Assembly (NCBI RefSeq): GCF_024298765.1
Contig: NZ_CP101210.1
Direction: 5' to 3' (one strand)
Origin: Escherichia coli
Lineage (GTDB): Bacteria; Pseudomonadota; Gammaproteobacteria; Enterobacterales; Enterobacteriaceae
Length of the DNA stretch: 64,000 nucleotides
Shown: positions 23,501 to 29,500 of the stretch, piece by piece
Numbering within the stretch: the stretch's first letter is position 1
Layout: every line of letters begins with the position of its first letter
Position numbers: made by a program

Positions 23501-26500
23501 TTTGTATAAATGGACATATACCATTGGAAGATTTAGAAAAGCATGTCCAGGAGTTTAAGGACAAATCTCATACTGATTATCGGAAGCTTTTATCATTATA
23601 TGATTACCAAGCATACAATGTATAATTATATACACTATTATTGTGATTATAATTTGTTACTGTGCCACTCAAGGGCAATATCTTTGAAGGTGTTGTTTAA
23701 CTGCGTTTCCCGGGCAATCTTTTCCTCTCGCTTCACTTCCATCAGATCGATTCCCCCAGAGATACCTCTTTTAGCTTCTTCAAGTTTTGCAGGAGCATCA
23801 GCTAAGGTGACCTCAGGATACACACCTAGTGCTAACAGCTTCTCTTTACCAGCTACACGATACTTGAGACGCCAATATTCTCCTCCACCAGGTTTTACCA
23901 GGAGGTACAGACCACCACCATCAGCCAACTTGTAAGCCTTCTCTTTTGGCTTGGCAGTGTCTATTTGACGGGCATTGAGTTTCACTTGGGGGTATCTCCA
24001 CTAAACTGAACAGCAAATCCCCTCAATTGCTTGTAGAGTTTGGGGTACTTAAATAGACGTCAAAAGACTAAAAGGGGCATTAATATACTGATTATAAGAG
24101 GTTTTTAAATACTTGAGTAGACTTGGGGAGACGTTAGAATGGTGCCGATAATAGGAGTCGAACCTACGACCTTCGCATTACGAATTAGCGAGACCAGTGA
24201 TTCAAGATGTTCACAGCCGTTTCAGCATGAAATAAAAAATATATAAAAATCAACAAAATAAACATAAATGCAGTATCAAGATGTTTCGCCTTGTTTCTGA
24301 TGATATCATGTTAAATGTGTACCCCACTGTGTACCCAAAAGGCTGAAGATATGACTTTTACTATTACACAAGACAGACAATTGGCTTCATTGACCGTTAC
24401 TAAAGAAGAAAAAGAAATCTTATTTGCTGTAAAATCTAAAGCTGGGGGAGGACTCTTTATACGCGTTCGTTATGGTAGCGACAATAAAAGCTGGATTTAT
24501 CGTTATCGAATAGCTCAAAAGCCAGCTAAATTAACACTAGGTAGTTACCCTGCCATGGGATTAGCTCAAGCTCGTAAAGCTCATGCGGATGCAATTGAAT
24601 TAGTAAGAAAAGGTATAGATCCTCGTCATATTAGAAAAAATGAAAAACAAAAAAATGAACAAATGATTATTTACTCTGAATTATGGAAAGATTGGATAGA
24701 ATTCAGAAAGACAAGTAAACCAATTAGCACCAGAACCCTTGCAGATTATGAAGGGACTTATCACCGCCACCTTGAAAAAGCATTAGGAAACCTTCGCATT
24801 GACGAACTTACCAAAAGCGTTATTTTTGAACATCTCAGTAATGTAAGAAAAACCAGTTCTGAAGCAGTTCGTAAAGGATTAATTATTCTAAATATGACTC
24901 TTGATCATGCCAACTTACAGGGTATGCTTGAGCATAACCCAGCACGACTGCTCAAACCAGCAATGTTTGGTGCATCGATGAATAAACCTCGCGAGCGATG
25001 GCTTCCTGAGAATGAACTCCGGATGCTATGGAAGGCTTTGGATGATGCTACTGTTGGAGGAGGCTCCATTGCATCTGGTGGCTATGGAATTTCCTCTAGT
25101 GTGGTATTATCTCATTCTGTCGCAAATGCACTCCGTTTGATTATTTTCACAGGAGTGCGCCGCTCTGAAGCGGCACAAATGCGCTGGGATCAAATTAATG
25201 GAGAGCGTTGGACCATACCAGCCACTAAAAATGGGAAAAGCCATATTGTTACTTTACATCCGTATATGCTTTCTTTAATAAAAACACAACGTGAATTCAC
25301 TGAAGGTGCATATGTTTTTGGTTCTACTAGCAAACCTGGCTTTCCCATCACAAATGACGCTCTGACTCGCGCGTTAGAAAGGGTTCGCTCTAAGTATCTA
25401 GCCGAACTTACTCCATTTTCTCCTCATGATCTGCGTAGAAGTGTTGCGACTGGATGCGCTGAATACCTTGATGCTCCAGAGCGCCTAATAGAGTTACTGT
25501 TAAATCATGTACCCAAAGACCGTTTAATACGAACATATCAAGTCGGACAACAAGCTGAAAAATTAAAAAATTTATTTATAGAATGGGGGAATTTTATTAT
25601 GAATAACGTCATTACTGTGCAGCAGAATGCTCCGGATAATGTTATTCATATAAAATTTGGGAACAGATGATAAAAATACATGCATGGTCTGAGATACCCT
25701 GTCTACTCGACCATGCAGTATGGTTCAACTAAATCAGTCACAACAAGAAATGATTAGTTTTATTAGATATTGTATGGGATTATTTCTGGATAATACTTCG
25801 CAATGATGTCATTTAGCCGATCAACCAGTTCTGGTTTTCTGAACGTGATATGCGCGGAGCCCTTCTTAAAGTATCTGATGCTGAACATCTCATCTTCATA
25901 GCAGGCTTTGCCCTGAACGGAGCGGATGTGATCATCCAGCCGAATAATGATATTTTCCCGGCTGTCGGGGATCGGTTTGCCGCTGAACAGGTGCAGCATT
26001 CTTTCCAGGTCGGCAAGTCGATCTACCTGTTGCCCGCTGTTCAGATGAAATCCCCACCGGTCCCATCTCACCAGATTGTTGACGATAATTTTATTACCAA
26101 ATTTACAGGGGGAGTTGGTTTTGTAATTCCAGCTCAACCCTCTGAAGACGTTGATCACCCCTCGCTCAAACACCTCATCCTTATTCTGGTGCAGTTGTTC
26201 AAATGTGCTCAGGATGTTCGCTTCGCTGATTTCCGGAAAATTATCGTATTCCAGTGACCGATACCATGTATCACGGGCCTGCGCATCCATTAATGACAGC
26301 ATCCCGGAGCGTTGCATCAGGTCACGCCAGATTTCGCGGTCAAGATTGCGGGTGATAGCTTTCATTGCGGTTTCAGGTTTCTCCATCAGCCAGCAGCCGC
26401 AGCGAAAATCCTGTTTCATGGCCCAGTCCAGTGCGGTTTTACCTCCAATACTTTCTGTCATTGCTGATATTTCAGCCAGTTGCCGGATAAGTGTGTCGAT

Positions 26501-29500
26501 TTGCAGCAGTGTACTCTTTCGTACAGCCAGAATGTGGCTGACTGAGGTTGAGCAGATAACGTCCGTATGCCCGTTGACCACTTCCGGACGGGAGAGTGTG
26601 ATTGCAGACATAATCGATATTCCTTTTCGCAGATAAACGAAAACGCCAGCCCTGTTCAGGCTGGCGTCAGGGTAATGAAGCGTGGTGAGTGATATTCACC
26701 GGTTCTGGTGCAGAAGCTGCAGATGACGCAGGGTACGGACATCCTCTCTGGCCTGTTCGATACAGGGCAACAGTGCTGCCGAATCCGTTCTATCCTCATC
26801 GTTGTCAAAGATAATTCCCGATTCGCAGTCGATATTGTCCTGTAGCCACGCAATCAGAATATCCAGTGCGGTTTCCGTGGTTAATGATTTCATGTTGTTC
26901 CTGGTTACCAGTCGAAAGTGGGCAGGTCCGGCAGACATTCAGCGCTGGCATCCAGATGAATGAGACTGACGCCATAACGTTGGATGAGTGTGACAACCAG
27001 ACGACGGAACGTTTTTGACAGCCCCAGGCGCTTGAGCCGCAGAACCGGATATGACCACGCATCGGTACGTAACAGATATCCGCTACCTGTGAAATGAATC
27101 CATTCTGATTCACCGAAGTCACTGGTCTGGTGTGACAGCGAGTACAGCCAGGCGTTATCCTTTTCCGTGATATGTGCGGTACTGCAGCGTATGCCGGCAA
27201 GGGTTGCAAACGGTGGTAGTGTGCAGGTTGACTGTTGGTCGGATTCCTCCACCACGCGGAGTGAATAACCGTTTTCAGCGACTTTGTTAATCAGTTCAGC
27301 GAGCTCAATACTATCGACGTCAACGACAATGCGCCCCATGTTCAGCGCCTGCGCATTAATGCTGTCGGCTTCCAGCGTCAGGGCCAGTTGCATCGTTTCG
27401 CCCCCGGATGTTTACCCAGGGTAATGTTATTTACCGTTCTGTAGTTGTCGCGTGTCATCAGGCCGGTTGCCCGGCGTGCCCGGAGGATATCAATACTGTT
27501 TATTAACTGAGAACGGGTACAGGCGCTGAATCCCGGCTGGTCGGTACGTACCAGTGCGTATTTTTCAACGAGAAAGTTCACCGCATCGCACAGTGAAATG
27601 CCTGCCTCAATATGCTGCTCAATCACACGTTCATCAGCGAACGGTGTGTCATTCAGCGTAAGGCCGTAATGCTGGTCCAGCAGTCGGGTGAGCAGTGTCT
27701 GCCAGATTTCAACCGGAGACGGGCGTGAACTGGCCGCCTGCCCGGGTAATACAGGTAATGTTTTCATACTGAAGATTTTCCTGATATGCAGAGATGAAAA
27801 ATGGAAAAGTGGCGTGGTGAAAGCACCAGGCCGGAGCAGAAGGTTATTCTGGAGAGTTACTTTTTCGTTTCGGGCGTCGGATAAACAGCCATATAAACGT
27901 AGCCACAACTGCCGAGGGTGTCGGCTTCGCAGGTCAGCCCTTTTGCATACAGCGTGACGGTATGCTGATGGCGGGAATTCAGTTCACCGCTGGTGAGCAT
28001 GAGTTCCAGTTGTTTCATCAGCAGCGGAAAGGCCTGGTCCAGGTGGTACGAATCCGCGTCGCTGAACCGGCCTCTGATACCGGCGCGGTCGGCAAGGTAA
28101 TGCAACCGGTTGCCCTCCTGCACCAGACGGGCGCCGAAACAGGGCGTCACGGTGCAGGGTAGTCCCCACCAGGGACGGTCATGATTGTCATCGGGATGCG
28201 TTGTCCCGGAGAGTGTGTCTGACACGATAAAATCCTCACAGAAAATCGGTGAATGATAGTTTAACGATGACGAGTCAGCCGGCGCGCAGACCGGCTTCGG
28301 TGAAGGTGTATTCGTTGATGAGTAGGGCCTCATCCACAGCGGCGTCTGAGGTCAGCCAGTCGTACTCGTTTTCCAGTTGACGGTACAACCAGAAGGCCAG
28401 GTCGCGCAGGGCTTCACTGACTGCGGCTTCCGCATCGGCTGTCATAGCCTGACCAGTCGGACTGTTCCTGGTAACTGTGATATCCATGCTGTACGGATGG
28501 CAGTAACGTCCCCGGTGACTGATTTCAGCCTGTAATTGCCAGAAGTTACGTTTCTGCACCGCCTGCAGGGCATCCGCGATACGATGGAGTTCATGCTCCT
28601 GTGGGGCATACTTCCGGATTCTTCTGACTGTCGCTGGCTGCCAGTGCCAGCGTCCTTCAAAACAGGCTCCGTCCCCCTGGCTGCAGAATCCGCTGAACCA
28701 GATGCTCGGCTCTTCCATAAACCTGCCGTTGCTGAGCCGGAAAACGCGCTGGCGGAGGTCAATTCCGAAAATGCCACAGACCTCCCTGAAGTCTTCATAC
28801 ACGTTTTCATACCAGTTGCTGTCAGCATGATGCTGACGGTACCCGTCGCGGGCTTTTTCCTGTGCCGGGCAGGAAAGCTCATCCAGCGTATACACGGTGG
28901 TGGTGATAATTCTGCTCATCAGAATGCCCTGATTCAGTTCAGTGTGACGCTCATCAGCCGGACATACGGGCCAAAACTGTCCTTACGACGTTCAGCAAAC
29001 ACGGCCAGCACACCGGGAATATCCTGCACTTCACGACCGGTATACGCTTCAGTGCTGCCGTGCCAGCGGTACTTACCGGTACAGAACGGAAAAAGACGGG
29101 ATGCAGGATGCTGACGGTGAATACGCATGGCTTCACCACGGGTGATGATTTTCATAATGGGATACCTCTGAAGACAGAAGATAAAAGTGAAAACAGGTGT
29201 GATGTGGTTGTGGCGGTGACGGGTTAAAGCAGGCCGTGTTCCGCAAAGGAGAAAACCTGGCTGCCACCGACTATCAGATGGTCCGGCACCCGGATATCCA
29301 CCAGGCCCAGTGCCTGTACCAGACGTTCCGTGATAAGCCGGTCAGCCTTACTGGGGGTGACTTCACCGGACGGGTGGTTGTGTGCCAGCACCACGGCAGC
29401 GGCATTGTGGTACAGGGCACGTTTAATCACTTCCCGGGGATGGACTTCCGTGCGGTTGATGGTGCCGGTGAAGAGGGTTTCACCGGCAATCAGCTGATTC

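Follow-up and report, generated by a model that had tools for sequence, protein, structure and literature searches.

A 64,000-nt stretch of an Escherichia coli chromosome (contig NZ_CP101210.1, RefSeq assembly GCF_024298765.1), hereinafter the window, encodes in an integrase-bounded island a 282-amino acid (aa) protein that belongs to the DUF4942 family. The gene (25763-26611, minus strand) is already known and annotated in RefSeq, and the window copy is an ordinary member of an uncharacterised family with nothing unusual about it. The family itself is a prominent "known unknown", that is, one whose function is unproven. Given that the plasmid members inspected are located in leading regions, that the family co-resides with antirestriction genes, and that a minority of relatives, mostly from phages, are fused to orphan adenine methyltransferases, we tentatively favor a role for this DUF4942 protein as a non-catalytic establishment or restriction-evasion factor, a possibility that we rate somewhat below even.

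Identity, conservation and predicted structure

The open reading frame (ORF) starts with the ATG at 26611, a few bases downstream of a Shine-Dalgarno-like AAGGA, and runs to 25763, stop codon included. An earlier note on this DNA described an intact minus-strand ORF of 282 aa between the integrase and the toxin-antitoxin (TA) block, and its coordinates, strand, length and placement between these flanking genes (Table 1) all hold. The statement in the same note that no motif could be assigned is superseded by a match to the complete Pfam profile DUF4942 (PF13708; 231.6 bits against a curated gathering score of 25 bits; E-value 7.9e-69; profile positions 1-190 of 190, residues 87-276 of the protein); DUF4942 had been proposed there as a profile to try, and this guess was right. 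The RefSeq coding sequence WP_112044913.1, "DUF4942 domain-containing protein", is 100% identical to the window gene at the DNA level, and several complete E. coli chromosomes contain an exact (100%) match to the 1.5-kb stretch around the gene.

Comparison of the window gene with its counterpart at this locus of the avian pathogenic E. coli (APEC) strain E12049 gives a nonsynonymous substitution rate (dN) of 0.024 and a synonymous rate (dS) of 0.222, with the resulting dN/dS of 0.109. Given this ratio and the breadth of the family, the window ORF is a real gene under purifying selection. Used alone as a query, the gene finds matches, almost all of them chromosomal, in 4828 of the 5426 complete E. 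coli genomes, and matches covering at least 80% of its length in 3664 of these; the genomes that have any copy carry a median of three and a maximum of nine.

When 1.84 billion representatives of 50%-identity clusters were searched exhaustively with HMMER (E <= 1e-3), 2277 homologous cluster representatives were retrieved. Among the best 150 of these 2277, most of the full-length-looking members are stand-alone proteins of 255-300 aa, a range into which the window protein fits. In an alignment of 92 diverse stand-alone members, which are approximately 30-55% identical to the window protein, W95, D201, H254 and N267 are invariant in all 92 sequences, and all four are present in the window protein. 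The conserved motifs of the family are LSWxYKTNxP, of which the window protein keeps S160, W161, Y163, N166 and P168, DxLxR, and GKPxPD (GKPEPDHR in the family consensus and GKPIPDSR in the window protein). A scan of all 92 alignment members for secondary Pfam families detected nothing recurrent. Proteins in which DUF4942 is joined to CbtA, RadC, DUF932, Antirestrict, GTPase or integrase domains occur in single-member clusters only; since each is a one-off, they look like deletion or assembly artefacts and were rejected.

The characterization of the protein in the earlier note as an uncharacterised accessory protein of the island is supported: no function has been characterised for DUF4942 in the literature searched. 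No well-characterised housekeeping family, an assignment that the note had named as speaking against its description, fits the protein either, as the NCBIfam and PADLOC profile libraries contain no match and searches of the PDB by sequence were empty, with noise (E about 1) for the single sequence and nothing up to an E-value of 10 for the 92-sequence profile. In PHROGs, the matches are families of unknown function and the DUF4942 part of one phage methyltransferase family.

The AlphaFold2 model built from the 92-sequence alignment has a mean predicted local distance difference test score (pLDDT) of 89.5 and a predicted template modelling score (pTM) of 0.82. It consists of a disordered N-terminus of 16 residues, a long helix (24-54), a helical bundle (79-160) and an alpha/beta domain (167-273), with H254 predicted to lie in a strand of a beta-hairpin and N267 in the next helix. 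This predicted fold has no relative among solved structures: a Foldseek comparison with 350,542 PDB chains returned no match at E <= 0.001, the best one having an E-value of 0.15 and a template modelling score of 0.13. The isoelectric point (pI) of the protein is 7.05 and its net charge is 0; within it, an acidic middle segment precedes a basic C-terminal domain, the pI of which is 9.15.

Plasmid relatives and methyltransferase fusions

The leading region of a conjugative plasmid is the first DNA to enter the recipient. A tblastn search detected DUF4942 on 4943 of the 72,556 PLSDB plasmids, of which 4034 are predicted to be conjugative. Identity is in the 35-38% range for most of these matches; between the chromosomal enterobacterial and the plasmid clades, it is only about 35-38%. 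In the IncI plasmids inspected, the DUF4942 gene (ygfB) is the second from oriT/nikA and is co-oriented with ardA, psiB and ssb. On pESBL-EA11, the gene denoted Hp22 (68947-69795) is a DUF4942 gene that also encodes 282 aa, and its product is 37% identical to the window protein (E-value 2e-57). In pOXA-48-like IncL/M plasmids and a related IncFII plasmid, DUF4942 is found in the leading region together with antirestriction, JAB/RadC and ssb genes.

In a published survey, DUF4942 is among the families most enriched in leading regions (Samuel et al., 2024; PMC11541004). In the Supplementary Table of that study, DUF4942 is family 24, with 2171 members, a false discovery rate p-value of 0 and the label uncharacterised; its median ORF index from oriT is 1, in the T-strand orientation, and another 551 proteins make up a second DUF4942 family (76). 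The window protein resembles these leading-region proteins (YdiA/YgfB; families 24 and 76) in the full-length match to the profile, in the length that it shares with Hp22 and in the retention of the invariant residues. The difference is in location: the plasmid genes lie close to oriT, whereas the window copy resides in an integrase-bounded chromosomal island, next to a type IV TA block.

More distant members of the family adjoin korA-incC-korB or kfrA on IncP-like metagenomic contigs; in other cases, the neighboring genes are Tn7-like or are small phage genes of the early type. No partner gene is conserved in the 12 diverse loci compared, which come from plasmids, phages and metagenomes, and most of the genes around DUF4942 there are small and hypothetical. 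On one metagenomic IncP-like contig (L002, 3738-6434), korA-incC-korB are followed by a distant DUF4942 gene, and the latter by an ORF of 126 aa and a gene for a C5 DNA methylase. This is another case of DUF4942 being associated, in a plasmid backbone, with genes for DNA modification.

Five of the best 150 representatives, along with approximately 23 relatives of one of the five (the metagenomic protein P0211), are longer proteins of 440-580 aa in which an N-terminal DUF4942 is followed by an extra C-terminal domain of 175-290 residues. This domain contains the motifs FFxTP, EPSAGxG and NPPF, the latter two in every fusion examined, and folds as an M.TaqI/M.BseCI-like minimal N6-adenine DNA methyltransferase core that lacks a C-terminal target-recognition domain of its own. 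Most phage homologues have this fused architecture and carry the annotation DNA methyltransferase, for example, gp095 of the Salmonella phage SSU5 and gp22 of the Pseudomonas phage phiPSA1; some plasmids encode fusions of this kind as well. The whole DUF4942 region, including the invariant W, D, H and N, is common to these orphan methyltransferases and the window protein, and the invariant residues are identical in the fused and stand-alone forms; the catalytic domain, in contrast, is theirs alone, and the window protein stops where that domain would start. Given that the fused core has no target-recognition domain and that the same residues are invariant in both forms, the simplest inference is that DUF4942 has a conserved substrate-engaging function that operates also when it stands alone.

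The stand-alone DUF4942 protein is not a methyltransferase. The window protein contains no PP dipeptide, no (D/N/S)PP(Y/F/W/H) and no GxGxG-type motif, and its predicted fold is not the class I Rossmann-like methyltransferase fold, so that the methyltransferase-like folds which the earlier note had proposed to search did not materialize. Because the methyltransferase motifs are found only in the fused domain, the "restriction methylase" names given to some family members are carried over from that domain.

Possible roles of the DUF4942 protein

Under the favored interpretation, the DUF4942 protein would serve its element upon the arrival of DNA in a new cell, along the axis of DNA modification and restriction evasion. 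DUF4942 could be a substrate-engaging module that binds DNA or docks onto a gamma-class methyltransferase core, and the stand-alone form might then act without catalysis, for example, by occluding DNA that enters the cell so that it escapes restriction, or by taking over or inhibiting an HsdM-type methyltransferase of the host. The chromosomal island would retain DUF4942 within a cassette that resembles a leading region and consists of DUF932, antirestriction, RadC and DUF4942 genes. The basic C-terminal domain and the purifying selection are additional features consistent with such a role. In its broadest form, this proposal posits a new establishment/anti-restriction class with a fold unlike the solved ones, in which the substrate-engaging module of a mobile-element adenine-methyltransferase lineage, active also by itself, shields DNA on entry or captures or blocks gamma-class (HsdM-type) cores of host restriction-modification systems, and in which the CP4-type islands of most E. 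coli genomes are chromosomal copies of a plasmid leading-region anti-defence cassette; we consider that combination unlikely.

Known systems provide partial analogies. ArdA and ArdB/KlcA occur in the same neighborhoods, that is, in plasmid leading regions and, in the island, as a PF03230 gene 3 kb upstream of DUF4942, and would presumably be needed at the same time. They show no sequence or fold similarity to the window protein, which matches only DUF4942 in Pfam. ArdA is a very acidic DNA mimic, whereas the window protein is neutral, and an ArdA/Ocr-like mimic was rejected on this composition. A leading-region methyltransferase of the M.EcoGIX type protects pESBL from restriction (Yamaichi et al.; PMC4288162). 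M.EcoGIX combines an accessory domain with an adenine methyltransferase on a mobile element, in the same pESBL leading region as the DUF4942 gene, but represents a different protein family, and its catalytic domain is absent from the window protein.

Several observations weigh against an establishment or restriction-evasion role. The supplement of the leading-region survey lists no sequence or structure match between the DUF4942 family and known anti-restriction or anti-CRISPR proteins (PMC11541004), and no functional account of DUF4942 was found in the literature searched. In the transposon sequencing (TnSeq) analysis of pESBL, Hp22 was scored 1.00, "non-essential", for maintenance and for transfer between laboratory E. 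coli strains, in a mating that was non-restricting (Yamaichi et al.; PMC4288162), so that any role has to be conditional; with regard to early expression, the transcriptome paper on pESBL names six induced operons. No relaxase or oriT is annotated near the gene in the identical or near-identical regions of three genomes. The model of a fusion protein (pTM 0.62) has a low-confidence linker and predicts no defined interface between DUF4942 and the methyltransferase. Among 90 close enterobacterial homologues, no hypervariable segment of the kind that confers specificity is apparent, the variability being evenly spread. Expression of the window gene is uncertain as well: a terminator-like hairpin is located directly upstream of its start, within the 84-nt spacer that separates it from the DUF957 gene (folding energy of the 96-nt region with the hairpin, -32.1 kcal/mol; z = -4.07), and no sigma-70-like promoter was detected on the DUF4942 strand.

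Finally, four invariant polar or aromatic residues over some 2000 clusters would be easier to reconcile with an enzyme active site than with a variable DNA reader, and the invariant D, H and N could equally mark such a site. This is the starting point of the strongest alternative, one we consider improbable, namely that DUF4942 itself has an enzymatic activity, such as that of a nuclease, a hydrolase or a DNA-modifying enzyme, with an active site formed by D201, H254 and N267 together with W95, and that the fused methyltransferase is its partner rather than its target. The four positions remain invariant when the equivalent residues of the fusions are added to the 92 stand-alone sequences, close homologues are evenly conserved over their length, and the predicted placement of H254 and N267 on a hairpin strand and the following helix loosely recalls the beta-beta-alpha metal-finger sites. 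The histidine, however, is on the second strand and only 13 residues before the asparagine, which is not the canonical His-Me geometry of the textbook HNH architecture; a His-Me finger assignment of H254/N267 was rejected given this geometry and the lack of a supporting match.

A less probable alternative is that the gene is a passenger, without a current role for the host or for the element, in a chromosomal and probably immobile island. The dispensability of the plasmid homologue in TnSeq would be compatible with this possibility, as would the mosaic structure of the island module, which is often disrupted by insertion sequences in other strains, and the lack of an obvious promoter. A passenger would not be expected to show the low dN/dS ratio and the retention of all invariant residues described above, or to be present, with at least 80% of its length, in so many complete E. 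coli genomes and typically more than once.

Less likely still is a function of DUF4942 as an accessory component or regulator of the adjacent CbtA/CbeA type IV TA system, a role suggested by the fixed synteny of the gene downstream of cbeA-cbtA-DUF5983-DUF957 in E. coli islands. We regard it as very unlikely because the family mostly occurs without the cbtA/cbeA pair: homologues lacking these genes are found on IncI, IncL/M, IncF, IncP-like and other plasmids, in phages and on metagenomic contigs. Moreover, the strong hairpin between DUF4942 and the upstream genes may uncouple it from the TA-containing operon, and the joined DUF4942-CbtA proteins are among the apparent artefacts. Lastly, an active DNA methyltransferase, as implied by the legacy names "restriction methylase" and "restriction endonuclease subunit M" and by the match to phrog_6263 "DNA methyltransferase" (E-value 1e-18), can be dismissed almost entirely, given that this match spans only positions 80-287 of the 548-position profile, that is, the DUF4942 part, and that the S-adenosylmethionine-binding motif I and the catalytic motif IV are absent, which refutes it as far as the sequence and the predicted fold tell.

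The island, its surroundings and the place of the family

The window covers a region of an extraintestinal or avian pathogenic E. coli (ExPEC/APEC) chromosome in which fdeC, the ecp operon and yagU are followed, in this order, by the vat island, made up of vat, a gene for a MarR-type regulator and a truncated integrase gene of the P4 type, and by a second island. The latter includes a co-oriented minus-strand CP4-type module that comprises, in the order of the strand, Ag43, DUF932, antirestriction (PF03230), RadC/JAB, DUF987, a 214-aa unknown, CbeA, CbtA, DUF5983, DUF957 and DUF4942 genes (Table 1). DUF4942 is the last gene of the module, separated from the cbtA/cbeA block by the DUF957 and DUF5983 genes, and is convergent with the island integrase, their stop codons being 92 bp apart.

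Table 1. Features of the DUF4942-containing island and its left boundary (window coordinates)
Feature	Coordinates	Strand	Comment
tRNA-Thr 3' fragment	24140..24185	-	46 nt; att-type junction; 5' of integrase; separates island from vat island
Tyrosine integrase of island	24351..25670 (ORF from 24315)	+	Arm-DNA-bind_3 and Phage_integrase
DUF4942 gene	25763..26611	-	Pfam domain at residues 87-276; invariant W95, D201, H254, N267
Terminator-like hairpin followed by U-rich run	26642..26668	-	11-bp stem with 7 G-C pairs
DUF957 gene	26696..26893	-	From RefSeq annotation of identical DNA; no Pfam match in window copy
DUF5983 gene	26905..27393	-	N- and C-terminal domains
cbtA, type IV toxin	27378..27767	-	
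cbeA/YeeU-family antitoxin	27857..28225	-	
214-aa hypothetical protein	28275..28919	-	No Pfam family; variable insert in module
DUF987 (yeeT)	28934..29155	-	
RadC-like JAB protein (yeeS)	29224..29700	-	
Antirestriction protein	29715..30200	-	PF03230, ArdB/KlcA type
DUF932 protein	30291..31109	-	YafZ/YubP type
Ag43/Cah autotransporter adhesin	31437..34283	-	Upstream end of co-oriented module

To the left of the integrase, different genomes contain different elements: a P4-like satellite with Drt3a/b in 13P460A, a lambdoid prophage in LH13-b and the vat island in the window. Given that, across genomes, the integrase remains joined to all that lies to its right, it belongs to the DUF4942 side. 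The window contains no complete tRNA anywhere, only the 3' fragment of tRNA-Thr, and the site of this fragment looks like a hot spot of tandem insertion. The truncated P4-type integrase of the vat island (23647-23985, minus strand) lies on the far side of the fragment from the intact integrase. The vat toxin gene (18431-22562, plus strand) is split into two overlapping ORFs of 498 and 910 aa by one extra G near position 19905 compared with the intact 4131-bp vat of APEC E12049; the split is due either to pseudogenization by frameshift or to an error in sequencing.

The window and APEC E12049 are 99.66% identical over positions 1499-26886, where approximately 51 of the approximately 87 mismatches are inside the DUF4942 gene, and 90-97% identical further to the right. 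This clustering, along with the drop in identity to the right, is suggestive of recombination with a breakpoint at the junction of the integrase and DUF4942 genes, and of mosaic exchange between paralogous CP4-type modules. The 214-aa ORF between DUF987 and cbeA, a "hypothetical protein" in RefSeq, has no counterpart in the E12049 module, which is syntenic in other respects. Beyond Ag43, a gene for a YeeP-like GTPase (34654-35565, minus strand) is followed by a complete type I restriction-modification system (hsdM, 35790-37346; hsdS, 37343-38569; hsdR, 38691-41807), the S subunit of which differs in length from that in strain LH13-b.

Taken by itself, the window gene is routine, with a RefSeq annotation and copies in most E. 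coli genomes, and the interest that attaches to it is modest; it is the DUF4942 family, not this locus, that calls for attention. Of the families enriched right at the beginning of plasmid leading regions, DUF4942 is one of the largest, and it is carried by clinically important IncI, IncL/M (pOXA-48-like) and IncF plasmids. Because conjugative plasmids so often carry it at their leading edge, and because its predicted fold is unmatched, the family deserves experimental attention, for which the plasmid copies are the better entry point, the window copy adding no special leverage. If DUF4942 proteins are indeed anti-restriction or establishment factors, they would represent a new mechanism in the biology of plasmid spread and would explain why a gene set resembling that of a leading region is kept in CP4-type islands.

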